A stretch of DNA of 64,000 bases, taken from a virus. Its lineage: Duplodnaviria > Heunggongvirae > Uroviricota > Caudoviricetes. Below, piece after piece: positions 3,280 to 58,640 of the stretch. The notes under the pieces were generated by a model that was not told the origin of the DNA, ran no database searches, and was given only the letters and a program-made list of their open reading frames with translations. Both the position numbers and the translations under genes were made by a program. The stretch's first letter is position 1; every line of letters starts with the position of its first letter. The stretch lies in IMG/VR virus record IMGVR_UViG_3300037089_000535; one strand, written 5' to 3'.

Positions 3280-4338
3280 ATGCAACGTTCTCTTCTTCCA
3301 CTACCGCCATTTTTCAACACAGCAAATGCGAACAACTGGGATTATAGTCCAAGCCTAGATAAGCTTCGACTCTTCGCAGAAGAGTGGCGTAGAGATCAAA
3401 AGATCAAAGCGTCTGCTGCGGCGAAGACGAAGGTCACCGCTCTCATCATCGATGCCAACAAAGACTTCTGCCATCCGCGCGGGACCTTGTTTGTCAGCGG
3501 GAGATCGGGAACCGGCGCTGTCGATGATAGCAATCGCATTGCTAAGTTCGTGTACGAAAATCTCGACGTGATTACGGACATCGTTCCTACGATGGATACC
3601 CATAAGCGTTACCAGATCTTCACACCAACCTTTTGGCAATGGGCCGATGGGACTCCAGTTCCGCAGAACCAGATCATCCCCACGGATCTTGTTGCCTCTG
3701 GGAAGATCAAGGTCATCCCCTCAATGGTCAACTTCATTCCAGGTGCAACAAGCACTTGGATCAATGACTATGTTGTGTACTATGCGCGCAAACTCGAAGC
3801 CGATGGCAAGAAAGTTCTCATTGCTTTCGCTCCGCATTGCGTTCTCGGAAGCGATGGCCATCCGATCATCGGAACCGTTTTCGAAGCCATCTCGTTTCAC
3901 TCCTTCGTGCGCCGCGTGGAGAATGATCCAGAAGTCAAGGGCGGCAACGTCCTCACTGAGTGTTTCAGTGTCCTTGGCCCAGAGGTGAAGGTTGCGCACG
4001 ACGGAACCATTCTAGACAACGGTGAGAATCGCATGCGCATGATCAAGGCATTGCTGGCCGCCAACTACGTCGTTATCATGGGTCAAGCATCAAGCCATTG
4101 CGTGGCAAGTACAATCGACGATCTGCTTACGTGGATCTTGGCTAACGATCCAAGCCTGGCCCAGAAGGTATATATTGCCGAGGATGGTATGTCGGCTGTT
4201 AACCTCAGCGCATACGGCGGGCCAGACTTTACCGATGCGGCCACAGCTGCGCTTGACAAGTTCCGCAATGCGGGAATGCATGTCGTTCGTCTGAGCGAAC
4301 GAATGGAAACCTGGCCCGGCTTTCAACTGGCAGCCTAA
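3280..4338 (+). CDS. Isochorismatase-family cysteine hydrolase, nicotinamidase (PncA)-like with insertions
   Basis: ALIIDANKDFCHPRGTLFVSG matches the PncA N-terminal motif. TMDTH and APHC are candidate metal ligands. VVIMGQASSHCVASTIDD matches the catalytic-Cys motif of the isochorismatase family. Confidence 0.55.
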   Translation: MQRSLLPLPPFFNTANANNWDYSPSLDKLRLFAEEWRRDQKIKASAAAKTKVTALIIDANKDFCHPRGTLFVSGRSGTGAVDDSNRIAKFVYENLDVITDIVPTMDTHKRYQIFTPTFWQWADGTPVPQNQIIPTDLVASGKIKVIPSMVNFIPGATSTWINDYVVYYARKLEADGKKVLIAFAPHCVLGSDGHPIIGTVFEAISFHSFVRRVENDPEVKGGNVLTECFSVLGPEVKVAHDGTILDNGENRMRMIKALLAANYVVIMGQASSHCVASTIDDLLTWILANDPSLAQKVYIAEDGMSAVNLSAYGGPDFTDAATAALDKFRNAGMHVVRLSERMETWPGFQLAA

Positions 4339-4380: not shown

Positions 4381-5202
4381 ATGAGTTCTAGCTCTAGTTT
4401 ATTTACGTCCTCAACACAGGATAAGAATGTCACGGCGGCTCTAGTCCAAATCCCAGACTTGACCGCCAAGATCCAAGCTGGGCAAGGAATGCCCGCGGTC
4501 AATGCAAAGGTAAGTACCGCATTGCTTATCCAGCTGCTTCTCGATGATTCTGGTTCTATGCAAAGAAAAGACCCAGACCCCAATGTAACAAAGTGCAACG
4601 CAGAGCTTCTCTGCGATGGACACAACCTAATTCGCAACACCCTGTTGAATAGCAAACAGGGCGCTGATGTGTTCATGGCCGCGCGTACCCTCAGTGGAGA
4701 GGTGGTCTATCCATTCCGTAAGCTCAAGGAAGTTCCCGAGCTAGTTTATCGGCAGAACTTCTATGCGAATGGTGGCACGCCGCTCTATGATGAAATCGCA
4801 GTCACCTACGAAATCGTTGCCAAGCAGGTGGATGATTACGAAGAGGCCTGTATTCCGTGCCGAACAATCACGGTATTCATCACCGATGGCAGGGACGAAC
4901 ATTCCAGGGCTTTCAATGCAGCTAAGGAGCTTCTTCCATTGACGGTGGCACGCATGAATCACGAGATGGACGTAATCGCTGGCGTCGGGATTAGCGACGG
5001 ATACTACGACTTCCGCAAGATGTTCTTGGAGATGGGTCTGTCTGACAATTGGATCTTGACACCAAAGAACACCGAGCACGAATTCCGTGAAGTCTTTCGT
5101 GTGCTCTCGCAGTCGGCACTGAACGTCAGCCAAGCCGGCGTGGGTGGGTTTAGCCAAGCAACTTCTAGTGGCCTAAGCCAAGCTGCTGGCGGCTTCATTT
5201 GA
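4381..5202 (+). CDS. von Willebrand factor A (vWA) domain protein
   Basis: MIDAS motif LLDDSGSM (DxSxS), GGTPLYD and VFITDGRD. A strong hairpin at 5212-5250 follows the gene. Confidence 0.55.
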   Translation: MSSSSSLFTSSTQDKNVTAALVQIPDLTAKIQAGQGMPAVNAKVSTALLIQLLLDDSGSMQRKDPDPNVTKCNAELLCDGHNLIRNTLLNSKQGADVFMAARTLSGEVVYPFRKLKEVPELVYRQNFYANGGTPLYDEIAVTYEIVAKQVDDYEEACIPCRTITVFITDGRDEHSRAFNAAKELLPLTVARMNHEMDVIAGVGISDGYYDFRKMFLEMGLSDNWILTPKNTEHEFREVFRVLSQSALNVSQAGVGGFSQATSSGLSQAAGGFI

Positions 5203-5261
5203 CAGTTGTTCATTCTGTTCGGCATCATTAAATTGGTGCCGAACAGAATCAGAGGTGAAAA

Positions 5262-6776
5262 ATGAAACTAGCCGGTACACTAAAGTGTGAAATAATCAAG
5301 CCGATTAATTCGGATGGAAAATCAATTTGGAACGAAGTCGGCCCAAGATTAATGGCCTTGAGAAAAACTTTAGCTCCGGCATTGACAATGACGATGCGGG
5401 AATTATATCCGCAAGCGGTTGGTGTCATTTACCTTTTTAAGTCGGGCAATAAGGACGAGGCTCGAACAGCTCAACAACAATGGACCGGCTTAGTTGAGAA
5501 GACATTGCGCAAGCATTGGAATGAAGAACTATTTGGGCGGCTCAATCACCTGAAAAGCAAACTTAAGGAAGAAGATGGAGAGGAACGTCTCAAAACCATT
5601 ACTTCTGCCAACGGTCCAATTCAGGAGTATTTATCTTCCGAGACACGCCACAACATCATATCCCGATGGAAGGGTGAACCATTTAAAGATCTGTTGGTTT
5701 CGAAAGTTTCGGTTCCATCATGGACAACTGGGTGTGCATTCTACGCCAGGAATCGCGAGTGCCCTGTTAGTGGAGACCCCGATAAGGCCCGATTGGGATT
5801 TCCTCTTTTCGGTGGTGGCAACAAACGAACAACACTGGTGGTGGCTCCCTGCGGTGATGGGCATGAAGCACTTTGGAAGAGGTTAGTTGCCGGCGAGATC
5901 AAGCTCGGTCATGTTGGAATTAGTTACAATCTTCGAAAACATAAGTGGTATGCATTAATCTCGTGGTTGGAGGAACGTGAAGAGAATATTTCTGGCTCAC
6001 ATGTTGCTGCGGTCAATATGGGAATCAATGTATTTTTGCAGGCGGTGTCAGATGACGGATCTGAATTCCATGTTGATGGCGGAGATATATTAGCTACCAG
6101 AAGACGATTTTATGGTCGTCGCAAGAGCATTCAGAAGTCTTTGGATAAGATGGGGAGAGGAGCACATGGACATGGGCGCAATCGATTGCTCCGTCCAATT
6201 ACGAATCTTGGCGATTGCGAATCAAGGTACATGTCCAGTAAGTGCAGAACAGTGGCGGCTGAACTCATCAAGTGGTGTGTTAGGCACAACATTGGTCGAT
6301 TGATTTTGGAGGATCTGAGTAGGATAAGGGAGACAGACGAAGCCAAAGATACTCATGAGGAAGTCAAGCGACTAATTCATTCATGGCCTTATGCTGAATT
6401 AACTGCTGCGATTACCAGACAAGGTGCTGAGTTTGGAGTCTCCATCGAAACTCGGGAAGCCTACTATAATAGTCAGCGATGTCCTATTTGCGGACACACC
6501 CATCAGGACAATGTTCGAATCATTGAAGACCGCAGAGACATCATGGTTGATTCCGAGGGAAGGAGATGGGAAAGAAGTTTGAGCAAAAGATCATTCTTCA
6601 CTTGTAAAAAGTGTGACTTCGATGCAAGTGGAGATTTGGTTTCGGCGTCTAATCTACTTCAATCTGTAACAGGATATAGCTCTATTCTCACGACTAAAAA
6701 TAAGGCTAACCACAAGGCCACTAACAAAAGCAAAGCCAAGGGTGATCGGGCTATGGAGTCACCAGGAGAATCATGA
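5262..6776 (+). CDS. TnpB/Cas12-like RuvC-fold protein (compact type V-like effector candidate); RuvC-I Asp apparently replaced by Asn
   Basis: RuvC-I-like AAVNMGINV aligns to the GIDLG motif with N in place of D. RuvC-II RLILEDLS has the Glu. A Zn finger CPICGH...CKKC is present. RuvC-III FDASGDLVSASNL is ADxNAAxNI-like. The Arg/Lys-rich RRRFYGRRKSIQKSL...HGHGRNRLL is typical of TnpB. A GGTGA ribosome-binding site lies upstream. The gene sits immediately upstream of a CRISPR array. Confidence 0.7.
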   Translation: MKLAGTLKCEIIKPINSDGKSIWNEVGPRLMALRKTLAPALTMTMRELYPQAVGVIYLFKSGNKDEARTAQQQWTGLVEKTLRKHWNEELFGRLNHLKSKLKEEDGEERLKTITSANGPIQEYLSSETRHNIISRWKGEPFKDLLVSKVSVPSWTTGCAFYARNRECPVSGDPDKARLGFPLFGGGNKRTTLVVAPCGDGHEALWKRLVAGEIKLGHVGISYNLRKHKWYALISWLEEREENISGSHVAAVNMGINVFLQAVSDDGSEFHVDGGDILATRRRFYGRRKSIQKSLDKMGRGAHGHGRNRLLRPITNLGDCESRYMSSKCRTVAAELIKWCVRHNIGRLILEDLSRIRETDEAKDTHEEVKRLIHSWPYAELTAAITRQGAEFGVSIETREAYYNSQRCPICGHTHQDNVRIIEDRRDIMVDSEGRRWERSLSKRSFFTCKKCDFDASGDLVSASNLLQSVTGYSSILTTKNKANHKATNKSKAKGDRAMESPGES

Positions 6777-7396
6777 CCGAACTAACAAACGAAGAAAAAC
6801 TTAAACTGGAACGACTTCGTGAGCGATGTATTATAATTCAAGGACTCTTGAAGCGATGGCATGAGTCTGCGGTTGAAATTGTGATTGCCCTCAAAGAAGT
6901 TGATGATGAAGGTGATTGGAAGCTGTCCTATCCCAGCTTTGATAATTTTTTGGAGCGTAACTTTCCGAATTCTGGTTTTGGGCTTAAGAGATATCAGCAC
7001 ACACTGCTTTCGATTCAAGAGTATGGTGAGGAGCTGGTTAGAAAGATTGGCCCTGAAGCGGCCCATGTGATGTCGCACCCAAGAATTACCGAGGAGCCAG
7101 CACGAAAGAATGAAATAATTTCGAATGTTAATAACTACATGGAGGCCAATGGTAACGCCCCTAATGCGGATTGGGTGCGCGAACAGCGAAAGAGAATAGC
7201 ACCCGAAACAAATCAGCCACCAAGATCCACTATAGCAATGTCTGCGCTGGGAAGGACCTGCAAAGAGCGTGATGAATGGAGGCGAAAGTTCGAGGAGCTA
7301 CAGGTAAAATACGATAGTGCTGTGAGTGAAATTGAACAACTCCGTAAGCAACTAGGGAAAAATGCGAGCACCTCTACTTCTGATATGGTTTCATAA
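6773..7396 (+). CDS. Hypothetical protein, translationally coupled to Cas12-like gene (possible accessory)
   Basis: ATGA stop/start overlap with the Cas12-like gene. The ORF ends 70 nt before the first CRISPR repeat. No recognisable motif. Confidence 0.4.
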   Translation: MTELTNEEKLKLERLRERCIIIQGLLKRWHESAVEIVIALKEVDDEGDWKLSYPSFDNFLERNFPNSGFGLKRYQHTLLSIQEYGEELVRKIGPEAAHVMSHPRITEEPARKNEIISNVNNYMEANGNAPNADWVREQRKRIAPETNQPPRSTIAMSALGRTCKERDEWRRKFEELQVKYDSAVSEIEQLRKQLGKNASTSTSDMVS

Positions 7397-7465
7397 GGGC
7401 TAATTTTAGCACCGCTCGCAAACCATATTCTAGTTCTTTGAAAATTCAGCGTTTTTGACGGCAGG

Positions 7466-8261
7466 GTATCAGTAACCTTCGAGAGATTCAGTTGATGTGA
7501 GTTGACGAACGTCAGACCTACCGAAGCATTGGCAAAGTATCAGTAACCTTCGAGAGATTCAGTTGATGTGAGATTGAGAGTAGCCGTCGCACACCATCCG
7601 GGGATCTGGTATCAGTAACCTTCGAGAGATTCAGTTGATGTGAGATCAAATGAATGACGACGATGACAACGACGACGAGTATCAGTAACCTTCGAGAGAT
7701 TCAGTTGATGTGAGGCTAAGTCCCAAGGTCACTCTAAATCTTGGAACAAGTATCAGTAACCTTCGAGAGATTCAGTTGATGTGAGCTCCTACAAGCTCCG
7801 GCGACTCCATTGGGGCTGCGATGTATCAGTAACCTTCGAGAGATTCAGTTGATGTGAGTAGTAGTTGTTTCGCCTGTGCAATCCAGCTTTGACAAGTATC
7901 AGTAACCTTCGAGAGATTCAGTTGATGTGAGAATCCGCCGGTAGTGGATCATGCCACGGGGGACACGTATCAGTAACCTTCGAGAGATTCAGTTGATGTG
8001 AGAAAAGAATGGACACATGTATTTGATACGTGTTCTGGTATCAGTAACCTTCGAGAGATTCAGTTGATGTGAGAGCGAAATCGACCCACCCCCCTCCAGA
8101 CGTATCAGTAACCTTCGAGAGATTCAGTTGATGTGAGGTGTTAGAGTGCCCACATTGTCATGATGCTGATGACGTATCAGTAACCTTCGATAGATTCAGT
8201 TGATGTGAGAAGATGGACGCGAATGGTATCAGTAACCTTCGAGAGATTCAGTTGATGTGAG
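7466..8261 (+). CRISPR. CRISPR array: 12 repeats of 36 nt (GTATCAGTAACCTTCGAGAGATTCAGTTGATGTGAG), 11 spacers of 16-37 nt
   Basis: Exact repeats start at 7466, 7537, 7609, 7679, 7750, 7823, 7896, 7967, 8038, 8102, 8174 and 8226. Repeat 11 carries a G->T substitution (cgaTagatt). Spacer 9 is 28 nt and spacer 11 is 16 nt. Confidence 0.93.
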
Positions 8262-8367
8262 ATACATGGAACTGACTGTCGCCAATGTGCGCGCCATGCG
8301 TCACCACAGTTTCCGCAAAGCGGAAACCAAATCATTCCTGGCGGTGATTTGTTTGAGTCCAAATGCA

Positions 8368-10317
8368 CTACTTCAATTGGCTTAGTTCGCTGACGAAGCC
8401 ACCAGACAAAACAGGGAACCTGCACCACGTCTTAGGATCAAGATTATGGTTGTCTACGTGGAACGCTATAGCGTAGCGCTCTCTTTTCCATTGATTGCGC
8501 ACCCACATTGTAAAGAACTTCCTTACATACGAAATTGCCAATGGGTTGTCGGGCCTTTCGCGACGCAGACAATTGAGCACCTCTTGTGGTCCCTTCTTCT
8601 CCAGGATGGCCCACGTTTCAATGGCATCGAGAATATCGTAAGGCATCAGATCATCCTCGTCTGTCTGGCCTTGTCCTGGGCGTAACTCAGCCGTTGGCTT
8701 CTGACTCACGATACCCTTCAGTGATGGATAATCCGTGACCATCGTGTTCAACCATTCGAGCAAGAACGCCTTGTCGATGCCGCCGATAGGGGCAATGGAT
8801 CCTGCGGTGTCTCCATCCATCGTGCAATAACCAACGGCAGCCTCTGAGCGGTTGCTGGTAGTGATTAGAAGCTTGCCCTCTAGGTTAGCTACCATCCAAA
8901 TGCTTGGGGCTCGTGCACGGGCCTGGATATTCTGCAACGCAATATCATCATGCTCCCAGGTCAGAGCGCGGCCCTCAACTTGTTCTGCTAGGGCTATGTA
9001 TTGTTTAACGATGGCATCGATATCGATCACAGAGAATTTGGCACCAATCTCATTAGCCACGGCCCTAGCCGCTTCAAGAGTTGTTGTTGAGCTGTTCGAT
9101 GTGGACTGATACACGCAGGTAAGAAGCTTCTCAACAAGCACTCTTCGACCATGAATCAGGTATTGTTTAATTAAATCTTCATCTATTGGAATGTTGAATT
9201 GATTGAGAGCATCTTCAATGCCTTGAGATTCATTAATAACACGCCTAATCATCAGAGATACCAGCGAGGCACATGCGGCCGAATCAGCGCCTCCGCTAAG
9301 AGAAACCACAAACCCTTTTGAATGTGACTTCTCCAAATAATCAAACAGCCCCAATGTAATTGCGAGGGTAAACTCTTGATGCTTAGTGAATGATTCGCTC
9401 TGTATTGGCTTGGTTGCTTTTTCATCACAGGCAATATTTTTTATTTCATTAACAAGACCTTGAGTATAATCAACTACGCCGCCAGCTTCTAAATCTGGAG
9501 AGAAGCTAGCTGTGGCAATCGCTCTGGTTTTGATTAATGAAAGATCAATGACGGCTGTTGTTAAATTTACCTTGGCCATATTTAGGAATGGGCCGCGAGC
9601 TAGTAAATCGCCGCCGCTTGCGACAATACAATCGCCATCATAAATGGCACGACCCGCTTCATTACCAAGAAGATTTGCATAAATGTAGGCTACATTAAAT
9701 GCCCGCGAGCCCTCAACAACAAGTCTCTCTCTAGTAACTCGTTTTCCGAAAGCAAAGTGAGATGCCGATGGATTCAAAATAATGTTGACGCCTCTTCGCG
9801 CTAAAGCGTTACCCGGCCGCTCTGCAACGAAAGCGTCTTCGCAAATCTCAAAGCCTATATGTACGCCATCGATATAGAAAACCAAATCCCCAATCACATA
9901 ACCAGGACCCTCTATAACCAATTTGGCTGGCCATGGCTTGAACCATCGTGGTTCGTAATGAAGGCCGTCACCCGCTAGGTGTTGCTTGGGAACGATGCCT
10001 ATGATTTTCTCATCATAAACACAGACCATTACGTTGTACAAGCAGTTGCACCACAGAAATGGTATGCCAAAACAAGTAAAGATTCCGCTTGTTTGTGGTA
10101 GTAGATCGCATACTATTTCCCAAGCTGTAGTTATAACTTGCTCTGATAGGAAGTGATCTTCGCAACCATATCCGGTGATTGCCATTTCGGGCAAACAAAG
10201 AACTTTCACGCCAGCTCTTCTGGCTTCACCTAGAGCGTCGATGATGTTATGCTTGTTGCGCTCCCAATCGAGAGGCGTTTGATTCAAGGTCGCCGCACCA
10301 ACTTTGAGGTTTGACAT
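8368..10317 (-). CDS. nadE: Glutamine-dependent NAD+ synthetase (N-terminal CN-hydrolase domain + NAD synthase domain)
   Basis: An N-terminal nitrilase-like domain (LCLPEMAITGYGCED) is followed by the PP-loop SLSGGADSAACASL. 649 aa. Several short opposite-strand ORFs inside it are judged spurious. Confidence 0.85.
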   Translation of the reverse strand: MSNLKVGAATLNQTPLDWERNKHNIIDALGEARRAGVKVLCLPEMAITGYGCEDHFLSEQVITTAWEIVCDLLPQTSGIFTCFGIPFLWCNCLYNVMVCVYDEKIIGIVPKQHLAGDGLHYEPRWFKPWPAKLVIEGPGYVIGDLVFYIDGVHIGFEICEDAFVAERPGNALARRGVNIILNPSASHFAFGKRVTRERLVVEGSRAFNVAYIYANLLGNEAGRAIYDGDCIVASGGDLLARGPFLNMAKVNLTTAVIDLSLIKTRAIATASFSPDLEAGGVVDYTQGLVNEIKNIACDEKATKPIQSESFTKHQEFTLAITLGLFDYLEKSHSKGFVVSLSGGADSAACASLVSLMIRRVINESQGIEDALNQFNIPIDEDLIKQYLIHGRRVLVEKLLTCVYQSTSNSSTTTLEAARAVANEIGAKFSVIDIDAIVKQYIALAEQVEGRALTWEHDDIALQNIQARARAPSIWMVANLEGKLLITTSNRSEAAVGYCTMDGDTAGSIAPIGGIDKAFLLEWLNTMVTDYPSLKGIVSQKPTAELRPGQGQTDEDDLMPYDILDAIETWAILEKKGPQEVLNCLRRERPDNPLAISYVRKFFTMWVRNQWKRERYAIAFHVDNHNLDPKTWCRFPVLSGGFVSELSQLK

Positions 10318-10479
10318 TTTCTATTTTCTCAGGTGATATTGATTTACAATAATAAAACGCAATAGGGCGTGGGCATATTGGCAAGTCATCTAGCTGCAAG
10401 TCCAGCAGCTCTTCTTGAATCTGTAGCTGGAATTTTAGTTCCGCAGCAGGTAGAGCTTCGTCATCGTCCACAGCCAACC

Positions 10480-11973
10480 TCATAGCGAGATGTTAAAGTT
10501 CGCTTGGCGATTCGCTTTGCAGATGTCAACCAATGCTTGTGTAGCTGGCGAATACTGCGGTGGGATGTTGAGTCCCAGAGCTGCCGCTTTGAAGTTTGGT
10601 TCGTAATTTGTAAGACAGTTGCCCGCGTTTAGGCGATAGTAATTCGGAATGACCTCGCCCTCTTGCCCGATGATCCCAACTGGAACCTCCGGACTGATGT
10701 GCATGGGATGCGGGCGATAGACAACTGGGAGCCCCGGCACAGATTGTTTGCCGCTCTCGGCCTCATCTCCGAATTTCATAGTGGCTACGCTACCGCTCTT
10801 CGACAGCTTCCAGACGCCAGCCACATCATCGCGCCTGAATGTTTTCCACGTAGGCTCTACCAAATATCCGCCGTAGCCATATGACTGACGATCAGGCGAC
10901 CACTCCATTGTCTCGCGATACTTCTCGAACCGAATCGTCTTCTCTAGATTCCACCCGCTCTCCAAGATGAGTTGCGGCAACAGACCAAGGCGCAAGCATT
11001 CTGTTATGGTATAGAAGTAGTGGTTCTTGATTCGTTCTTCTGAGTCGAAACGAATGCCAGCGTTTCGATCAGGACGCTCTTGAATTGCGAGCAGTGCCGC
11101 CGGGATTCCAGATCGAATTGAATCAAACGTATCTGGTAAGTATGAAATGAAACCCGGGAATCGATCGCGCATTGTGATGAATGAATGGTAGTCACTGCCA
11201 AAGCGTTGAATGTGCTCGTGCCCCATCGTGCCTACCGGAATCATTCCAAGCTCTTTGGCTAGGTAGACATTCGATGTGCGCAGGATACCGGCCTCTTTGA
11301 TAGCGCTGAGGGCAATTTTGTGTTGTGCCATGCACGACACGGCACGCATTCCAACCTCAAAGATGCGATCAGGATTACCGCCAACAGCTTCCACCAAGGC
11401 TTTGGCTTTGGCCAAGATGCTTTGATAGTACTCGTCGGTTCGCACTTCAACCTCTGGTATTTTGCTACCGGCAAACAGACAAGCATTGAGAATGAGTTCT
11501 TTCTCTTCTTCGCATGTAGCGAACATCTTGTCTGGCAAGGCTCGAACCTTGGCCTGAGTTGCGACTTGAATAGTGAAGTTGAGCATGAGTGCTGTTGGCT
11601 CTAGCCAGCTTGAAACAGCCGATGGGCCAGTAACGGAGAAGGCCGGCTCTCGGCTATAGAACCAAGAACCCTCGGGAATGGACGATACCTTTACCGTATC
11701 GACCATTGAGAATGCTTTGCGATACGCCGCGCCAACTGCATAGGAGTTGGCTTCGAGGTATGAATAATCTTCGGCAAGCTCTTTCATTGGCTGGTGTGCA
11801 TCCGGAAGAAGGCCTTTGACGTACTTCGCTGCATCTATCGGCAGGAAATGCCAGCCGTAATGCCCGCCGCGCCGATGGGTGTAGTAAAATGTTTCCGTCC
11901 TTAACGGAAAGCCAGCTTCGGCCATCGAGAATTTGTACCCATCTGTCATTGTTATTCTCACATCAACTCGCAT
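10480..11973 (-). CDS. Nicotinate phosphoribosyltransferase-family protein (PncB-like; NAMPT not excluded)
   Basis: TDGYKFSM N-terminal motif and IPVGTMGHEHIQRF (cf. NAPRT GTMAHS). The first 6-8 codons of the tracked ORF fall inside a CRISPR-repeat relic. A more plausible start is Met9 (ATG at 11949-11947) with a GTGAGA SD-like sequence 7 nt upstream. Confidence 0.65.
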   Translation of the reverse strand: MRVDVRITMTDGYKFSMAEAGFPLRTETFYYTHRRGGHYGWHFLPIDAAKYVKGLLPDAHQPMKELAEDYSYLEANSYAVGAAYRKAFSMVDTVKVSSIPEGSWFYSREPAFSVTGPSAVSSWLEPTALMLNFTIQVATQAKVRALPDKMFATCEEEKELILNACLFAGSKIPEVEVRTDEYYQSILAKAKALVEAVGGNPDRIFEVGMRAVSCMAQHKIALSAIKEAGILRTSNVYLAKELGMIPVGTMGHEHIQRFGSDYHSFITMRDRFPGFISYLPDTFDSIRSGIPAALLAIQERPDRNAGIRFDSEERIKNHYFYTITECLRLGLLPQLILESGWNLEKTIRFEKYRETMEWSPDRQSYGYGGYLVEPTWKTFRRDDVAGVWKLSKSGSVATMKFGDEAESGKQSVPGLPVVYRPHPMHISPEVPVGIIGQEGEVIPNYYRLNAGNCLTNYEPNFKAAALGLNIPPQYSPATQALVDICKANRQANFNISL

Positions 11974-11992
11974 CTCTCGAAGGTTACTGCTT
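11957..11992 (-). repeat. Degenerate inverted copy of the CRISPR repeat (~29/36 nt)
   Basis: ctcacatcaactCGCatctctcgaaggttactgCTTTAC compared with the reverse complement of the repeat, CTCACATCAACTGAATCTCTCGAAGGTTACTGATAC. Confidence 0.7.
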
Positions 11993-12050
11993 TACAGCAA
12001 GCTCTGGATCTGTGCAATTGCAAAGTGTCTTTAGTCAGCTATTAAAGTCA

Positions 12051-12080
12051 AATGGCCCACTGATAAATCAGTGGGCCATT
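12051..12080. other. Perfect 13-bp-stem hairpin (AATGGCCCACTGA-TAAA-TCAGTGGGCCATT)
   Basis: Exact inverted repeat with a 4-nt loop, immediately 5' of a repeat-like copy. No clear U-tract on either strand. Confidence 0.6.
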
Positions 12081-12082
12081 CT

Positions 12083-12120
12083 TCAGTAACCTTCGAGAGA
12101 TCAGTCATTCAACGAGTGAG
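12083..12120 (+). repeat. Degenerate direct-orientation copy of the CRISPR repeat
   Basis: tcagtaaccttcgagaga-tcagtcattcaacgagtgag compared with TCAGTAACCTTCGAGAGATTCAGTTGATGTGAG. Confidence 0.55.
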
Positions 12121-12332
12121 CTTGATCCTCAATTGAGGACTCCTCGCGTTTAGGCCATGTGATTGGCCTGCAAGTAAACCTTACTATAAGATACAAAAAA
12201 GTCAAGTAGTCTTTGCGAAATACTTACACCTACCCACATCAACGCAACTATACCAGCTGAGAGACTATCGTTGATTGTGTACAGCAAGCCCACGCTTCAT
12301 ATCGATCGCGATCATCGTCGTTCCTCCTTACT

Positions 12333-12369
12333 CTCACATCAACTGAAATCTCTCGAAGGTTACTGATAC
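12333..12369 (-). repeat. Near-perfect inverted copy of the CRISPR repeat (one extra A); candidate anti-repeat or solitary repeat unit
   Basis: ctcacatcaactgaAatctctcgaaggttactgatac equals the reverse complement of the repeat plus a 1-nt insertion. It lies 110 nt upstream of the 12479 ORF. Confidence 0.8.
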
Positions 12370-12478
12370 GTACTACGCATCCTTGAGCGGTTCGCATGTA
12401 GTGCCTGGCCCATGTGACTGTCCGGGATATTTGGCCGAACCGGCCGAGTTTGCCTTGGAAGACTTGGAAGAGAAATAG

Positions 12479-13021
12479 ATGCCACACGGACAACTCAACA
12501 TACCCCAGCTGACAGCTTTGAGGCCATTGGTTCATGGCAAAGTAATCCATGACCTAGGCGCTGGAGACTTGGGTCTCGCTCTTGAACTACTTAAGTTGGG
12601 AGCTGCTAAAGTCATTGCGATTGATAAGGGTTACAATCGTACCAATGAGAAATATGATAGCAAGTCTTGGAACGTGCCGCCTGAGATTGAAATACGTCAT
12701 CAATATTTCCAAGATATGAATGAGGAAATCGATACTGCCTTTGTGAGCTGGCCCGCCAATTATGACAACGGCCTGTTGAGAATTCTCATGCAAACAAAAA
12801 CAATAATCTATTTGGGTAAAAATACTGATGGTTCTGCTTGTGGAACCCCAGATCTCTTCAGATACTTTGCCACTCGCAAGATAGATGTACACGTGCCATC
12901 AAGACCCAACACCCTTATCTGTTACACAGATCATTTGGATGAACCAAGACAACTGTTACTGCTGGAAGAGACGGCCGCTATCAATGCTAGCGTAGATAAA
13001 CCTCCAGTCACTTATATCTAA
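12479..13021 (+). CDS. SAM-dependent methyltransferase-like protein (small)
   Basis: Methyltransferase motif I-like VIHDLGAGDLGLALELLKLGAAKVIAIDK. Confidence 0.4.
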   Translation: MPHGQLNIPQLTALRPLVHGKVIHDLGAGDLGLALELLKLGAAKVIAIDKGYNRTNEKYDSKSWNVPPEIEIRHQYFQDMNEEIDTAFVSWPANYDNGLLRILMQTKTIIYLGKNTDGSACGTPDLFRYFATRKIDVHVPSRPNTLICYTDHLDEPRQLLLLEETAAINASVDKPPVTYI

Positions 13022-13758
13022 TCTATTACACACATCTCGTGCCATCTAGCCGAAAGCATTAGGGCAACTATCGCTGGACTCAACCCATAGTGACCGAAGG
13101 CATAGGCATCATTAAGCTCGACCAGTAGTGTTCGTCCGTCATCAGCAACTCCCCAGTCAAGGCAGTATGCTATTGGACTATGGCCCTTCATAGCCTGTAC
13201 GGCAGCCTCCACAATTGACCTATCAGGAACCTTGGACCAATCCCCTTTGTAATGCCGGCAATCAAGCACTTGGCCATCCAGAATGAATGCACGATATTCT
13301 GAAACGAAGTTGACCAGATCAGACACCCAGACATCAATGTCATCGGCTTGAGTTACAAGCAAGCGGCGAGACATTTCATCATTGTGCCAGCACATTCCAT
13401 TGAAAAGCTTGTGCTGAACCGGCTTGATGAAATATGAATCTGCCCGTGAGCGAATCTCACCCAGCTTCATTTGGCGCAAGGAACGTCCAAGAAAGTCTGT
13501 GAGTTCTTCTGGATAATCCATGCTCTTTGGTATTGGGATTCCGAGTTTTGTCAGGGCTCTGTGGATATCTTCTATGTAGCCAGCCACGCCAACGGTTGGG
13601 CTCAGGTCTCCAATATCTGAAATCTCTTCGGTGGATTCAAAGGTAGAGGTCTCTACACCTAACAGCCAAAAGCCTCGGCGAGAATAGTCCAGTACTTCCG
13701 TCTCGGGGAATCCATCACGGTGTCTGATATAGAATTTGACGGCCTTAAGATCATACAT
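13018..13758 (-). CDS. ATP-grasp-fold protein (putative)
   Basis: EYRAFILDGQVLD and LLVELNDAYAFGHYGL resemble the C-terminal lobe of ATP-grasp enzymes. Confidence 0.35.
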   Translation of the reverse strand: MYDLKAVKFYIRHRDGFPETEVLDYSRRGFWLLGVETSTFESTEEISDIGDLSPTVGVAGYIEDIHRALTKLGIPIPKSMDYPEELTDFLGRSLRQMKLGEIRSRADSYFIKPVQHKLFNGMCWHNDEMSRRLLVTQADDIDVWVSDLVNFVSEYRAFILDGQVLDCRHYKGDWSKVPDRSIVEAAVQAMKGHSPIAYCLDWGVADDGRTLLVELNDAYAFGHYGLSPAIVALMLSARWHEMCVID

Positions 13759-15926: not shown

Positions 15927-18344
15927 TTATTTCGTTGCTACCCTAACTCCATCTAATGTTATTGAGGTTGCTCCTGTAATAACAATCGTATGGGTTGCTG
16001 GTGCCGGTGTTGGTACCGGGGCGGGTGGAGTTGGAACTGGCACCGGCGCTGGAGGCGGCGTTGGGGTTGGGGCTGGTGGTGCAGGCGTAGGCGTAACCGT
16101 TTGCAACGCTGCCAACAACTTGGTCCCAACTGGGACACCAACACCAGTACAGGCATCCCAACCTACACGAGCGGCATAGGTTCCGTTGTTGCCGGTGATA
16201 ATATCTCTATACCATCCTGTCAATGAATAGAGTGCTGAGTTTAGATAGCCAACATTCTTTCCAAGGGCCTGTGTTAAACAGGCCGCTAAAGCCGCCCATA
16301 GAGGCGCTACTGCACTCGTTCCACCGATAACATAGTTCTGACCATCGACAATAACATTCCAACCGCTATTTGGATCTGCATTACCGGCAACGTCAGGAAC
16401 GCCACGATACTTTCCGCCAGGAACATTTGCTTTTGCTTGATAGGTTGGAATGGCAAACAGGGAACTAACGCCACCGCCAGTTGCCTCTCCTCCTCCATCA
16501 TTCCATACAACTTCAGTTGTCGTGTTCAAAGCAGGAAGGCTGGTACCTCCACAGGCCAGAACAAGTGGCGATGATGATGGAAAGTCAACGTGGTTTCCAG
16601 ATTCGCCATCACCTGAACCTCCGTCGCCGGCTGCCACTGTTACAGTAATCCCGGCAGTAGCTGCACGCTGGAATGCGGTATTGAAATTGGCAATCGATGT
16701 AGAACTCCATTGATCTTCAGGTGAGTTGCCACACCATGAAACCATGCCCTTTCTACGAACAAACATGATATGGTTGGGCACTGTCAAACAGTATACAAAG
16801 TCATCATAATCAGCTTCATAGCGCTTAGTGAGGCGTTCTGTTTTGTATGTCTCTTTGATATTTACTCGATATTCTATATGTCTGGTTATACCCTTTGCGT
16901 TTTTCCTGCCTCGACGATCAATTGTTTTGATAGACCCAACAAAGCCGAGTTTCAAAAGCAACTCTTGTACACCATCTGCAAGCATCTTTGAAGATGTATA
17001 GTACGCCTGCTTGCCTTTTCCATTCCGAGTCCCATCTCCCAACATAAGAGCATCATATAATATTCTTAATTGTTGTGGGCAGGCCGATAAAATATGAGGT
17101 GGAATAAATTTTTCCCATGACTTACCAAACTTAGCTAGCCCCAAACACAATTCACGATTGCAACAACTCCATCCGTGTCCATTACGGTTGAATTTGAATG
17201 GCATTTTATCAAGACAACGTTGAATCTGCGCAACCTTTTCTGGATTTGAAATTTGTGATATTCCGGTCGAATATGTTTGCTCATCAAATGCCTTGGCTTG
17301 ATATTCTGTTTGTATTATTTCTATTGGTGTATCCTTATGGCGTTTTGCAAAAGTGCCATCGTGCATTCGCTCTATTCTTTGGTTTAGGAATCGTGGTCGT
17401 TTTTTGACAAAGGTGCGTTCTTTATGGTGTGTAACTCCAATACTGGTGTGTCCTTCGGATAGAAAGTAGCCCATGAATTCAAGGTAAAGATCTGCATTAA
17501 TATTTTTACCACCTAAAGTTACCGTCTTTAGCTCCTCACCATTCCATAACGCCGTCTTAGGCACATAACACCAATTATTAGAGAAAATCTCTTCTGATGG
17601 ATATAAATCAGCTTGATGCTTCGCACGTTTCACATACATCATATGATTAGGTGTAACCATCAAATCGGTGCAACTCCCTTGGTAATGGTGCATTTTACCT
17701 TTGTAATGATACTTGTGAGTTTTTTGAATAGGTTGATATTCTAATTCTCCTGTACTGGGATTTAATGTAGCAATCAGCTCATCTCCGTTAATATTCTGGA
17801 AATAACGCCATCCTGTATTTGTTAACACTTCGGTCTCGTTGTCATAACAACCCCAAGAGATACTGATTGCGGTCATATCATCAGTAATAGCCTGGTTGAT
17901 TGCGTCCAAGAAGCCAGCGTCTGTATTTGGGGCCATGTAGCAGTGAAGCTCTGCACCAGGGGCCATTGCACCAATGATACATAGGTCGAGCATTACTTCG
18001 CCATCAGCTCCATTAGGATCGCCGGGAGCGTTCTTTGCCCCATCGATGCCATGAAATACTACTGGCTTTACTGTTAGTCCAAGGGAAGTAAAATACTTAT
18101 TTAGATCTGCTTGAACGTAGCCACCTCCCAATTCAATAACTGCAACTTTGGTTCCAACTCCTGTTGCGTTCGTTGGGAAGCCATAAAATGTGGCCAATTG
18201 CTTTGGGTTATAGCTAACGCTTGTAGCGCGAGATCCGGCGAATGGTCTATGTCCAATCTGTGGAGGAATTGGTGGGCGTCTATTACCTGTGGTGGGTAAT
18301 GCTGCTGCGCCTTTAAATCTCCTGATATATGATATTAGTTGCAT
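15927..18344 (-). CDS. Sedolisin/subtilase-like (S53/S8) serine peptidase interrupted by an intein; C-terminal Pro/Thr-rich linker plus small domain
   Basis: Extein motifs ISISWG|SPEDQW (SxSWGxxE), AAGDGGSGDG and GGTSAVAPLWAAL (catalytic Ser). The insertion begins with Cys right after SWG and ends ..WCGN before Ser. The C-terminus is PTPAPPAPTPTPPPAPVPVPTPPAPVPTPAP. Confidence 0.75.
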   Translation of the reverse strand: MQLISYIRRFKGAAALPTTGNRRPPIPPQIGHRPFAGSRATSVSYNPKQLATFYGFPTNATGVGTKVAVIELGGGYVQADLNKYFTSLGLTVKPVVFHGIDGAKNAPGDPNGADGEVMLDLCIIGAMAPGAELHCYMAPNTDAGFLDAINQAITDDMTAISISWGCYDNETEVLTNTGWRYFQNINGDELIATLNPSTGELEYQPIQKTHKYHYKGKMHHYQGSCTDLMVTPNHMMYVKRAKHQADLYPSEEIFSNNWCYVPKTALWNGEELKTVTLGGKNINADLYLEFMGYFLSEGHTSIGVTHHKERTFVKKRPRFLNQRIERMHDGTFAKRHKDTPIEIIQTEYQAKAFDEQTYSTGISQISNPEKVAQIQRCLDKMPFKFNRNGHGWSCCNRELCLGLAKFGKSWEKFIPPHILSACPQQLRILYDALMLGDGTRNGKGKQAYYTSSKMLADGVQELLLKLGFVGSIKTIDRRGRKNAKGITRHIEYRVNIKETYKTERLTKRYEADYDDFVYCLTVPNHIMFVRRKGMVSWCGNSPEDQWSSTSIANFNTAFQRAATAGITVTVAAGDGGSGDGESGNHVDFPSSSPLVLACGGTSLPALNTTTEVVWNDGGGEATGGGVSSLFAIPTYQAKANVPGGKYRGVPDVAGNADPNSGWNVIVDGQNYVIGGTSAVAPLWAALAACLTQALGKNVGYLNSALYSLTGWYRDIITGNNGTYAARVGWDACTGVGVPVGTKLLAALQTVTPTPAPPAPTPTPPPAPVPVPTPPAPVPTPAPATHTIVITGATSITLDGVRVATK
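16725..17849 (-). mobile_element. Intein (~375 aa) with LAGLIDADG homing-endonuclease domain inside the peptidase gene
   Basis: Begins with Cys (CYDNETEVL) after SWG and ends GN before Ser. Internal LEFMGYFLSEGHTS and LYDALMLGDGTRNG are LAGLIDADG-like blocks. Removing it restores the sedolisin SWGSPE motif. Confidence 0.65.
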
Positions 18345-19661: not shown

Positions 19662-19964
19662 TTGGATACGTATACATTATTTGTAATAAGCAGTTTTGAT
19701 CTTACTAAATTTGGTTGTCCTCATTGTGGATCTATAAATGGTAGTGTCTTATTAATCAATGGAACTTGCTTCATATGGAACTGTGATGATTGCGCCGAAG
19801 AATGTGCAGTTGTTGGAAAATCAGTTGATAAAATGTCTCAGTTTGTAATTAGAAACACTGATATCAAAGACCTTATTGGCCAACATCCTTACCAAGAAGA
19901 TTACAAAATAAACACTTTCGCTCTTAGGGTTAACAATATTCCACTTAACGGAGTTGTTCAATAA
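19662..19964 (+). CDS. Small Cys-rich (Zn-ribbon-like) hypothetical protein; stop codon lies inside mini-array repeat
   Basis: CPHCGS...CFIWNCDDCAEEC. Its TAA stop is part of the degenerate first repeat of the mini-array. Confidence 0.3.
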   Translation: MDTYTLFVISSFDLTKFGCPHCGSINGSVLLINGTCFIWNCDDCAEECAVVGKSVDKMSQFVIRNTDIKDLIGQHPYQEDYKINTFALRVNNIPLNGVVQ

Positions 19965-20062
19965 CCTTCGAGAGATTCAGTTGATGTGAGGTGTTAGAGT
20001 GCCCACATTGTCATGATGCTGATGACGTATCAGTAACCTTCGAGAGATTCAGTTGATGTGAG
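19955..20062 (+). CRISPR. Mini CRISPR array: degenerate repeat, 36-nt spacer identical to main-array spacer 10, then a perfect repeat
   Basis: R1' is 19955-19990 with a divergent 5' part. The spacer at 19991-20026 is gtgttagagtgcccacattgtcatgatgctgatgac, identical to 8138-8173. R2 at 20027-20062 is an exact copy of the repeat. Confidence 0.8.
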
Positions 20063-20113: not shown

Positions 20114-20148
20114 GAGGGGCGGAAATAAACCGCCCCTCGATTTGTTTG
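20114..20148 (+). terminator. Rho-independent terminator
   Basis: Stem GAGGGGCGG-aaataaa-CCGCCCCTC followed by gatttgtttg. Confidence 0.7.
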
Positions 20149-57411: not shown

Positions 57412-57537
57412 CTTCACAGAGGGTTGGTCCCTCGCCTACTACATAAGTTGGAAAACATCAGCTTTATGCCTCGCGTCCCGAAACGGATGCACTTTTGTGA
57501 AGCTTACACGCCGTGGTTCGAATCCACAAAGCGGCTC
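57412..57537 (+). ncRNA. Structured RNA repeat unit U1 (hairpins A, C and a T-arm-like hairpin D)
   Basis: gaggg-ttggt-ccctc; gcgtcc-cgaaac-ggatgc; CTTACAC box; cgtgg-TTCGAAT-ccaca. Homologous to U2-U4 with compensatory stem changes. Confidence 0.6.
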
Positions 57538-57690
57538 TAAAACTATCAAACAACAGCGCTTACACGCTCATAACGTACGTTCAGGGCTGATTCAAGTACC
57601 TGAACAACCCAAAAGCACTGTTACTCGATAGGTTTAATTTTCAATGGAAATGCTTCCATTGTGTGTTGAAAATATTGTGTGTTGAAAATG

Positions 57691-57792
57691 GGGCTAAAGG
57701 TAAAATTAGTAATTAGCGTTACCACTCGTATCAGAAATGATGCATCCTTTAATGCTTACACGAAAGACGGTTCGATTCCGTTAAGCTCCACT
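57691..57792 (+). ncRNA. Partial or degenerate structured RNA unit U5 (CTTACAC box and T-arm-like gacgg-TTCGATT-ccgtt)
   Basis: Shares the cactcg...gatgcatc, cttacacg and T-arm-like modules. Confidence 0.45.
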
Positions 57793-57828
57793 GAGAAGAA
57801 ATTCTCATCATGCGGGAATATAGAGGCT

Positions 57829-57945
57829 CGGTGCCTCACCTGAAATTTAACTCAGATATATTCAGCTTTTTCACTCGCGTCCCCTCAGAAGGATGCATCT
57901 CGCAAGGCTTACAAGCTGTGGTTCAACTCCACATTCCCGCGCAAA
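57829..57945 (+). ncRNA. Structured RNA repeat unit U2
   Basis: gaggc-tcggt-gcctc; ctga-aatttaac-tcag; gcgtcc-cctcagaa-ggatgc; cttacaa; tgtgg-TTCAACT-ccaca. Confidence 0.6.
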
Positions 57946-57968
57946 AGCAGTCAATCAGAAGTGCATAC

Positions 57969-58041
57969 ACGCAATTATGTTCAATGGTAGAACATTTCTC
58001 TTGAAAAGAAAAAATAGTAAGTTCGATTCTTACATTTGCAA
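57969..58041 (+). tRNA. tRNA-like gene B: good D-, anticodon- (anticodon UGA, short variable loop) and T-arms, acceptor stem not pairable (pseudo or atypical)
   Basis: gttc-aatggta-gaac; tttct-CTTGAAA-agaaa; gtaag-TTCGATT-cttac. The flanks acgcaat and atttgca are not complementary. Confidence 0.4.
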
Positions 58042-58085
58042 TCAAACAAGCATTTCAACTCGACTGCTTATTTATTTCGGCCAGT

Positions 58086-58218
58086 TATAGAGGATCGGTT
58101 CCTCGCCAGTTATGTTAAACTGGAGCCAAAAGCTCTTCAGGTTTATCACTCGCTTTCGCAAGAAAGCATAAGATGATTCTTACACGCAAACCTTGTTCGA
58201 CTCAAGGACTGGCCACCG
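58086..58218 (+). ncRNA. Structured RNA repeat unit U3
   Basis: gagga-tcggt-tcctc; ccagtt-atgtta-aactgg; gagc-caaaa-gctc; gctttc-GCAA-gaaagc; cttacacgcaaa; ccttg-TTCGACT-caagg. Confidence 0.65.
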
Positions 58219-58393
58219 GTAATATTTCATATTGACAGTTCGGCGTACAGGTCCTAACTGCTGACCTAACCCGTGAATGTACCCATCTGCAGATGGACGG
58301 ACTAAGCTTAGGAATCTTTATGAAATATTACTTGTCATTCAAATACAGGAATGTATTTGAATGAGCTAGCGCAATCAAATTCGAAGTGCTTAC

Positions 58394-58467
58394 ACGCAAT
58401 TAGCTCAGTGGTTGAGCGTTTTCCTATCACGAAAAAATCATGGGTTCAATTCCCATATTACGTACCA
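58394..58467 (+). tRNA. tRNA gene A with encoded CCA; cloverleaf complete but anticodon reads AUC (unusual)
   Basis: Acceptor acgcaat/attacgt (one C-A mismatch); D-arm gctc-agtggtt-gagc; anticodon arm ttttc-CTATCAC-gaaaa; T-arm atggg-TTCAATT-cccat; discriminator a then CCA. Confidence 0.6.
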
Positions 58468-58509
58468 AAACAAGCATTTCACCTCGATTGCGCAAACCTT
58501 AATGACCCT

Positions 58510-58640
58510 GATAGAGGATCGGTTCCTCACCAGCCATCGAAGCTGGAGCCAAAAGCTCTTCAGGTTTGCACCTCGCCCTCACAAGAGGGCAAATAGCAGT
58601 CCTTACACGCAAAGGTGTTCGACTCACCACAGGGTCACTA
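58510..58640 (+). ncRNA. Structured RNA repeat unit U4
   Basis: gagga-tcggt-tcctc; ccagc-catcgaa-gctgg; gagc-caaaa-gctc; gccctc-ACAA-gagggc; cttacacgcaaa; ggtg-TTCGACT-cacc. Confidence 0.65.

Follow-up and report, generated by a model that had tools for sequence, protein, structure and literature searches.

The 64,000-nucleotide (nt) stretch of viral DNA analyzed here in full (the window; IMG/VR record IMGVR_UViG_3300037089_000535, Caudoviricetes) contains a huge-phage locus made up of a Cas12f-like protein, a coiled-coil partner protein and a fixed CRISPR array of 12 repeats. Three further repeat-derived elements, named A, B and C, lie outside the arrays, next to two genes for nicotinamide adenine dinucleotide (NAD) salvage. 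Comparison of gene order with related phages indicates that the segment carrying them, ~8344-12478, is inverted in this phage. We tentatively read the cluster as the flipped distal tail of the Cas12f-like (type V-F-like) locus, in which B and an adjoining hairpin of 13 base pairs (bp) may represent its trans-activating CRISPR RNA (tracrRNA).

Repeat-derived elements outside the arrays

The consensus repeat of the locus is 36 nt long (GTATCAGTAACCTTCGAGAGATTCAGTTGATGTGAG) and is present in 12 copies at 7466-8261 and in two copies at 19954-20062. Repeat-like elements were sought by local alignment on both strands of the whole 64-kb window, with five shuffles of the window as control. Outside the arrays exactly three were found, A (score 54), B (41) and C (67), far above the shuffle maxima of 21-24 (Table 1). 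When the 13-nt 3' end of the repeat was searched for with up to two mismatches, 16 matches were obtained against 1.7 expected, and these were confined to the arrays, A and C. The cluster of repeat-derived elements in both orientations that had been described in a first-pass annotation, made from the sequence alone, is therefore confirmed. Exact alignment also bore out its count for C (36/36 with one insertion, minus strand) and the perfect 13-bp hairpin at 12051-12080; A is a minus-strand repeat copy as had been stated, and its identity, estimated at ~29/36, is 32/36 with one insertion. A further repeat fragment reported near 12229, cccacatcaac (12232-12242), did not hold up, as it is not significant alone (a 9-nt match, blastn E ~4, with three mismatches to the 13-mer).

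B is identical to the repeat over TCAGTAACCTTCGAGAGAT (19/19), and the remainder is rich in insertions and deletions and still ends in GTGAG. Its changes number 0/19 in the 5' part versus ~9/19 in the rest (Fisher p = 0.001), and their confinement to the 3' half fits a constraint on pairing. A and B are complementary to each other over ~23 bp and can form a composite hairpin (11972-12104) around the 13-bp stem, with a folding energy of -72.3 kcal/mol (z = -8.5). The 5' part of A is one arm of this stem, and A ends 7 nt (AATAACA) before the ATG of the phosphoribosyltransferase gene.

The spacing from A to C is 376 nt, with B in the opposite orientation, as against the ~60-75 nt of a regular array, and the irregularity argues against an ordinary decayed array, as the first-pass annotation had held. 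Regular direct repeats of such an array were not found, and even in the order before the inversion C would still lie ~190 nt from repeat 12. Similarity between cluster and array ends at the repeats; the flank of C matches spacer 10 at 8/12 positions, which is not significant. Directly downstream of C, the strong Shine-Dalgarno sequence AAGGAGG (12323-12329) stands 7 nt upstream of the ATG of a 16-codon open reading frame (ORF) with the product MIAIDMKRGLAVHNQR. By our own arithmetic, made with no dedicated tool, the chance of such a pair in the 530-nt region is ~0.02, and its presence after C suggests that the minus strand is expressed here.

The region of the cluster is base-for-base identical in two other assemblies of the phage that span it (L001 and L002), and the same three elements are present in a third (L003). 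Since the cluster is the same in other assemblies, it is not an assembly artifact; these identical copies are uninformative on conservation.

Table 1 Coordinates of the elements, genes and candidate RNAs. Positions refer to the window unless another locus is named.
Feature	Position	Strand	Description
Element A	11957-11992	-	32/36 identical, one inserted base; sense repeat on minus strand
Element B	12083-12120	+	Degenerate repeat on plus strand, anti-repeat on minus strand
Element C	12333-12369	-	36/36 identical, one inserted base; sense repeat on minus strand
Hairpin	12051-12080		Perfect 13-bp stem, 4-nt loop; candidate terminator of anti-repeat RNA
Candidate tracrRNA-like transcript	12038-12215	-	Predicted extent; three small stem-loops, anti-B, terminal 13-bp hairpin, U-rich tail
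16-codon ORF	12265-12315	-	Read from sequence
Cas12f/TnpB-like effector, 504 amino acids (aa)	5262-6776	+	Pfam Cas12f1-like_TNB (PF07282), OrfB_IS605
Partner protein, 207 aa	6773-7396	+	Overlaps effector gene; homolog after effector in 11 loci (alignment A5)
Main CRISPR array	7466-8261	+	12 repeats, 11 spacers
Array trailer	8262-8343	+	Contains hairpin GTTTCCGCAAAGCGGAAAC
Second mini-array	19954-20062	+	Two repeats, one spacer identical to spacer 10 of main array
Inverted segment, ~4.1 kb	8344-12478		NadE-to-180-aa intergenic remnant, NadE, phosphoribosyltransferase gene, whole A-B-C cluster
Left inversion junction	~8343/8344		Placed from alignment A7
NadE, glutamine-dependent NAD synthetase	8368-10317	-	Pfam NAD_synthase, CN_hydrolase
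Nicotinate/nicotinamide phosphoribosyltransferase-like gene, 489 aa	10480-11949	-	PHROG 448; L001 gene calls; ATG 11949-11947
180-aa gene	12479-13021	+	Weakly TlyA/methyltransferase-like; outside the system, marks right edge of inversion
Upstream structured RNAs, 150-170 nt	L013 9788-9956; L025 9836-9987; L029 5541-5711		Long closing stem, three or four hairpins

Inversion of the segment and the candidate anti-repeat RNA

Syntenic relatives were reached through homologs of the phosphoribosyltransferase-like gene, whose matches to the NCBIfam NAPRTase models are all below cut-offs. In L029, whose phosphoribosyltransferase is 85% identical, the upstream genes are those of the window (PP2C, a kinase-like gene and two unknowns) and are followed by distantly related versions of effector and partner. 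Next come an array of three repeats, the last of which ends 31 nt ahead of the phosphoribosyltransferase ATG, and then the phosphoribosyltransferase gene itself and NadE; the array and both genes share the strand of the effector. In L031, L032, the P0023 contig and L033 (from a 392-kb viral contig) the phosphoribosyltransferase gene and NadE are co-oriented with their neighbors, and none of the four has a CRISPR module. The 180-aa protein of the window is 72% identical to a 181-aa protein of L031, the gene for which starts 22 nt after NadE. The intergenic sequence between these two L031 genes, ATTTGGACTCA..., recurs in the window on the minus strand, immediately past the NadE stop, and a second piece of it abuts the ATG of the window 180-aa gene. 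The inversion is concluded from the synteny with L029, L031 and L033 together with these relocated intergenic pieces, which flank NadE and the 180-aa gene. The inverted arrangement is the same in three independent assemblies and thus no product of misassembly. An invertible switch was considered and dropped, as the orientation is one and the same in all three assemblies in which NadE and the phosphoribosyltransferase gene are both covered.

Before the flip the cluster would have lain between the array and the phosphoribosyltransferase gene, where we place it because this is the most economical history, with two events, module insertion and inversion. The order would then have been effector, partner, 12-repeat array, ~190 nt, C, small ORF, B, 13-bp hairpin, A, phosphoribosyltransferase gene, NadE and 180-aa gene. 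At that stage A and C most likely formed the tail of the array as ordinary sense repeats, and they look inverted relative to the main array because the segment that carries them was flipped. A heads the phosphoribosyltransferase gene and has its positional counterpart in the last repeat of L029.

The first-pass annotation had suggested that the inverted copies supply the anti-repeat of an RNA needed by a compact Cas12/TnpB relative. The general idea is retained, given the Cas12f profile of the effector, the unstructured repeats and the anti-repeats of six related loci; its candidate, C or A, is not, because the inversion is the simplest explanation for the orientation of both, and the tracrRNA candidacy consequently moves from C to B, presumably the one true anti-repeat of the locus. 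The minus strand of B (anti-B) is perfectly complementary over 18-19 nt to the 5' part of every repeat, and the rest pairs around a 7-nt bulge. B is the only significant minus-strand complement of the repeat, and 0/200 shuffles reach its score. Among the predicted duplexes with the repeat, those of A (-49.7 kcal/mol) and C (-62.4 kcal/mol) are stronger than that of anti-B (-43.7 kcal/mol, z = -8.8); B is still preferred.

On the minus strand the 13-bp hairpin starts 2 nt after anti-B and is followed by AUUUGACUUUAAU. The candidate transcript folds with -59.5 kcal/mol (z = -4.8), and the anti-repeat is unpaired in its centroid structure. The order of its parts, anti-repeat, short gap (2 nt here) and strong hairpin, is that seen in the related locus L024. 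The repeats of five loci fold on their own no better than shuffles, and repeats that are unstructured alone are typical of tracrRNA-dependent systems.

According to the mechanism that we propose, a minus-strand RNA of ~110-170 nt would start with small 5' stem-loops, run through anti-B and end at the 13-bp hairpin. It would act in trans as the tracrRNA on transcripts of the main array, the mini-array, A and C. In each repeat the first 19-23 nt would be paired with it, and the remainder less tightly. The duplex of repeat and anti-B would be bound by the Cas12f-like protein and cut by a host RNase, presumably RNase III. A may have been kept as the repeat that heads the phosphoribosyltransferase-NadE operon, and could pair with anti-B in cis. 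We infer the transcription and the ends of this RNA, its binding by protein and its processing from the features given above.

Effector family and anti-repeats in related loci

The effector retains a Cas12f-like core of RuvC and zinc-ribbon (TNB) domains. A search of PDB with the family profile gave AsCas12f (8j12/7wju) as best match (E ~1e-35), then Cas12f1, Un1Cas12f and a nuclease-deactivated Cas12f (9n9c), and the matches to this core range from E 1e-35 to 1e-15. In the residue alignment to 8j12 the window sequence AAVNMGIN stands opposite GIDLGV, so that N replaces the catalytic D of RuvC-I, and motifs II (E) and III (D) are present. The intact RuvC triad (D, E, D) of a type V-F effector is thus broken at motif I. 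RuvC motif I is N or H in 17/17 family members (35-58% identical, alignment A1); the motif II glutamate is lost in some members and the motif III aspartate is invariant. Because motif I carries N or H in all 17 members, the family is probably nuclease-dead. Arrays or mini-arrays adjoin the effector in the window and in L007, L013, L024, L025, L026, L027 and L029. The motif I change across the family points to a phage-borne Cas12f-like clade, probably nuclease-dead, that keeps real CRISPR arrays. The homologs all come from phage-like contigs or from a prophage in a metagenome-assembled Polyangiaceae genome, and the genome-contig collection gave no match to the family. The nearest cellular homologs of the phosphoribosyltransferase (~48% identical) belong to Myxococcota (Archangium, Myxococcaceae) and, together with the Polyangiaceae prophage, may give a weak hint at the host group.

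The partner protein consists of an N-terminal domain without a family match and a C-terminal leucine-zipper-like coiled coil. Against Pfam and PDB it gave coiled-coil/bZIP-type matches only, with no sigma-factor or helix-turn-helix (HTH) match, and no further homolog was found in a word-indexed search. Its single-sequence structure model is poor (predicted local distance difference test score 46). The N-terminal domain carries the motif W..GV[DE]...WKL...F.DFL..EFPN..G..RY. The partner gene stands after the array in L013 and after the mini-array in L025.

The end of the main array is irregular (8174-8261): its last spacer is 16 nt long and repeat 11 has a G-to-T change. The spacers are identical in four assemblies from different samples, except for a 7-nt difference in spacer 9, which is 28 nt long in the window and 35 nt in L001. 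No adaptation genes turned up among the ORFs scanned in the window. A promoter inside every repeat was considered and dropped, as no hexamer-like motif is visible. Neither the spacers nor the sequences that follow A, B and C match anything else in the 64-kb window, where the best match of the 36 nt after each element is 22-23/36, at noise level; the suggestion of natural guide-target sites in the first-pass annotation is therefore without support. A comparison of the array with 50,697 phage records returned low-complexity noise from spacer 3 only, and Rfam, with both gathering and E-value thresholds, returned two tRNAs elsewhere in the window, two chance matches and nothing else.

The first repeat of the mini-array and the stop codon of a zinc-ribbon ORF (19662-19964) overlap, and 3' of the mini-array there is a strong terminator at ~20115-20140. 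The spacer of the mini-array translates in frame as VLECPHCHDADD, so it may derive from a zinc-ribbon gene. Left of the window start, L001 contains at 1255-1277 a borderline repeat-like stretch of the same phage (TATCAGGCCCTTCGAGAGTTTCA, 19/24 repeat positions, score 26), which sits at the junction of two genes.

Complements of each locus's own repeat were sought in seven loci with 200 repeat shuffles each, and L029 was scanned likewise. Anti-repeats were found on the effector strand in six related loci (L007, L024, L027, L013, L025 and L029). Three of them are significant across the locus and lie 72 nt upstream of the mini-array (L007), 130 nt downstream of the array (L024) and 93 nt upstream of the effector ATG (L027). 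L024, whose effector lineage is ~40% identical to that of the window, has a terminal degenerate repeat, two hairpins, an anti-repeat to repeat positions 2-26 and, 6 nt later, a 15-bp hairpin. In L013, L025 and L029 the effector gene has a strongly structured RNA immediately upstream (z = -8.3, -6.5 and -7.8, respectively). A short perfect anti-repeat occupies one and the same spot in all three RNAs, left unpaired just 5' of the closing stem, and the RNA of L029 is preceded by a good promoter, TTGACA-17-TAAAGT. The upstream RNAs of L013, L025, L027 and L007 are too diverged to align, so that no shared covariance model is possible. The L029 scaffold gave no convincing alignment with the A-B module of the window; the shared CAGTAACC..TC..AGATT is possibly due to chance. 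No anti-repeat was found upstream of the effector in the window, where the anti-repeats are in the cluster only. At that position (5213-5250), where relatives carry the scaffold RNA, the window has a 13-bp hairpin (ATTCTGTTCGGCA...TGCCGAACAGAAT) just before the effector ribosome-binding site.

L007 also has a 540-nt non-coding stretch after the partner gene (12087-12629) with three copies of CTGCAATGC and variants. The last three are ~65 nt apart. The motif is complementary to part of the 3' end of the L007 repeat; nothing else is shared between the units.

Several observations weigh against B as the tracrRNA. L026 has no anti-repeat in the same scan. In four relatives the anti-repeat precedes the effector gene and is complementary to the middle or the 3' part of the repeat, versus the 5' part in B, and the layout of the window is matched by L024 alone. 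The related nuclease-dead dCas12f-sigmaE systems do without a tracrRNA and work with single guide RNAs (PMC13472631). Gene conversion or pairing in the A:B stem, and not tracrRNA function, could have kept the 19 nt of B perfect. A scan of 11800-12600 for sigma-70 promoter and terminator consensus sequences gave nothing useful and did not flag the 13-bp hairpin, though the consensus may not be that of the host. An alternative history, with one more event, has the cluster inserted between NadE and the 180-aa gene as now oriented and the flip produced by homologous recombination between inverted repeats; in that case the effector strand would hold A and C as genuine anti-oriented copies. Finally, the comparison of the intergenic region proposed in the first-pass annotation gave the identical copies in L001 and L002 and, in the collections searched, no diverged ortholog of the cluster region, so that no covariation test could be made; what recurs is the anti-repeats of the six related loci. 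Isolate-phage genomes gave no match in a megablast search with 5000-13100, and the 18-nt core common to A, B and C gave nine single matches in JGI metagenomes, with dissimilar flanks, which are ascribed to chance.

The closest known counterpart of the candidate is the tracrRNA of type V-F (Cas12f/Cas14) systems. The locus resembles these in its small effector of the Cas12f clade (AsCas12f, Cas12f1 and Un1Cas12f being the best matches) and in repeats that are unstructured alone, and the candidate resembles their tracrRNA in having a separate repeat-complementary element near the 3' end of a stem-loop-rich RNA. The locus differs in the N in place of the RuvC-I aspartate, in the conserved coiled-coil partner and in the lack of adaptation genes among the ORFs scanned. 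The candidate, which is putative, differs in that it lies 3.8 kb (3.8-4.1 kb, with two metabolic genes between) from the array, on the opposite strand, in an inverted segment and between two full sense repeats; it adjoins the array only in the proposed pre-flip order.

With TldR and dCas12f-sigmaE (PMC10705468, PMC13472631) the locus shares a RuvC-inactivated Cas12f/TnpB relative that is operonic with a small accessory protein, a fixed guide content, and carriage on a mobile element, as with prophage-borne TldRs. Unlike in those systems, the window effector is changed at motif I only and its C-terminus is not truncated, the partner has no sigma-factor or HTH match, and real multi-spacer arrays are kept. 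Standalone or degenerate repeats in or beside a CRISPR locus and next to gene starts are also known from CRISPR RNA (crRNA)-like RNAs, CreA/CreR, tracr-L and scaRNA (e.g. bioRxiv 10.1101/2023.03.03.530964); these elements, however, have a pseudo-spacer that partly matches a cas or toxin promoter, and no such match was found in the 64-kb window. Virus-borne mini-arrays, solitary repeat units and RNA anti-CRISPRs (Racrs) likewise involve repeats and mini-arrays scattered in a viral genome in which, here among the ORFs scanned, adaptation genes are lacking (PMC10651486, PMC7099407, PMC11656645), whereas the repeats of the window belong to the phage's own effector system and no host system is recognizable.

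In phages with a 79-86% identical phosphoribosyltransferase, the same site holds a module of ~20% protein identity or none (L029 5694-8381 compared with window 5262-8261; L031 and L033 without a module), and it looks like a hot spot for swappable cassettes. Elsewhere in the window, an 805-aa ORF (15927-18344) with LAGLIDADG and weak intein-splicing matches and with PHROG matches to thymidylate synthase and ribonucleotide reductase is probably an intein-interrupted gene of nucleotide metabolism. At 57416-58613 two tRNA genes (57970-58041 and 58394-58464) are each set between flanking units that are themselves repeated (direct-repeat families D6 and D7), which suggests a tRNA cassette duplicated in tandem.

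Competing explanations and significance

The three elements could be neutral leftovers of array rearrangement with no present role, in a system that needs no tracrRNA or is decaying, which we consider unlikely, if less so than the alternatives that follow. Such relics had been suggested in the first-pass annotation, and the suggestion stands in part, as the history of A and C. The 376 nt between A and C are irregular, scars are found nearby (the 16-nt last spacer, the mutated repeat 11 and the duplication of spacer 10 in the mini-array), the inversion is itself documented, the window holds no target for any spacer or pseudo-spacer, and the array content is fixed across samples with no adaptation genes among the ORFs scanned. 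Neutral decay is nevertheless hard to reconcile with the strongly non-random changes in B (0/19 vs ~9/19), with a C that is intact but for one base, and with the perfect A:B stem and 13-bp hairpin. A similar anti-repeat and hairpin are present in L024 although its effector is only ~40% identical, and L029, whose repeat sequence is different, likewise has a repeat immediately before the phosphoribosyltransferase gene.

It appears rather improbable that A, C or both act as tracrRNA anti-repeats when read from the plus strand, on which the effector gene now lies, as had been proposed first. The RNA could run from near 12197 through C toward the 180-aa gene, or it could be an A-hairpin-B RNA in which anti-A is fused to the repeat-like B as a natural single guide. 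Complementarity to the repeat is by far the strongest for these two elements, as the duplex energies above indicate; in 6/6 relatives that have an anti-repeat, it shares the strand that the effector has at present; the fold of A, hairpin and B (z = -8.5) resembles the RNAs with closing stem and hairpins of L013, L025 and L029; and there is a weak promoter-like site, TTGGCC-16-TATAAG, at 12163-12190. However, the inversion accounts for the orientation of A and C without any function, and near-perfect complementarity over 36 nt is what is expected of a flipped repeat. Long-lived tracrRNA anti-repeats are usually bulged. Around C, the plus strand of 12190-12480 is no more structured than shuffles (z = +0.98), and an RNA through A would have to start inside the coding region of the phosphoribosyltransferase.

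About equally doubtful is a role of the solitary repeats as regulators, an idea that is compatible with B as the tracrRNA. Cis sites bound by the effector to regulate flanking genes had been suggested in the first-pass annotation, and one observation hints at them: the phosphoribosyltransferase gene directly follows a repeat both in the window and in L029, though with unlike repeat sequences. A would act in the 5' leader of the phosphoribosyltransferase-NadE operon and C in that of the 16-codon ORF, and both would be recognized by the complex of the dead effector, either as RNA operators or processing sites or as natural guides with the gene's own 5' end as spacer, by which the dead protein would sit on its own locus and tune transcription or translation. 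Their positions invite this view: in the window, A ends 7 nt before an ATG and C is followed by a Shine-Dalgarno sequence and a small ORF; in L025, the distance is 10 nt from the end of repeat 2 to the partner ATG and 31 nt from that of a partial repeat to the following gene; in L013, it is 36 nt from the end of a partial repeat to the partner gene; and in L007, the degenerate repeat 3 abuts the effector start. L029 has, in addition to its last repeat at 31 nt from the phosphoribosyltransferase gene, one solitary sense copy of the repeat's 3' part in each of three successive intergenic gaps upstream of the effector module (3388-3407, 4492-4516 and 5390-5408). A dead effector would also remove the cost of targeting the phage's own genome. 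Yet in compact phage operons everything is near a start codon, and proximity is weak evidence. The protospacer- or transposon-adjacent motif (PAM/TAM) of the family is not known, the pseudo-spacers have no partial match to any promoter in the window, the other intergenic gaps of the window, including those equivalent to the gaps in L029, have no copies of the repeat 3' part, and the mechanism has no precedent test in any Cas12f relative.

More speculative still, and less probable, is the wider proposal that huge phages carry a swappable module, composed of a dead Cas12f-like protein, a dimerizing coiled-coil partner, an anti-repeat scaffold RNA and a fixed mini-array, whose repeats are planted singly before phage genes, in this phage before the NAD-salvage operon and a small ORF, and are read by the ribonucleoprotein as RNA operators or self-matching guides that time or tune expression. 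If true, this would be an RNA-guided program of gene control built into a virus, and not an immune system. We regard it as very improbable that the elements are Racr-like decoys that mimic host repeats and thereby titrate Cas proteins of the host: Racrs are typified by solitary repeat units in phage genomes (PMC10651486), but the copies match the phage's own array, which has its own effector, and none of 185,579 species-representative genomes contains the 21-nt repeat core, nor does IMG/VR contain the 32-nt core.

A local inversion can create an inverted repeat copy near a CRISPR array, and such a copy alone is no proof of an anti-repeat; here it was the synteny with relatives that made another of the three elements the credible candidate for the tracrRNA. 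Should B be the tracrRNA, all components (effector, partner, crRNA and tracrRNA) would be at hand of a Cas12f-like system that is undescribed, borne by a phage and probably nuclease-dead, and they could be used directly for reconstitution. The main interest lies in the phage-borne family of a dead Cas12f and its partner to which the cluster belongs, which looks like a further case of Cas12f being co-opted to bind DNA and not cut it, here in viruses.

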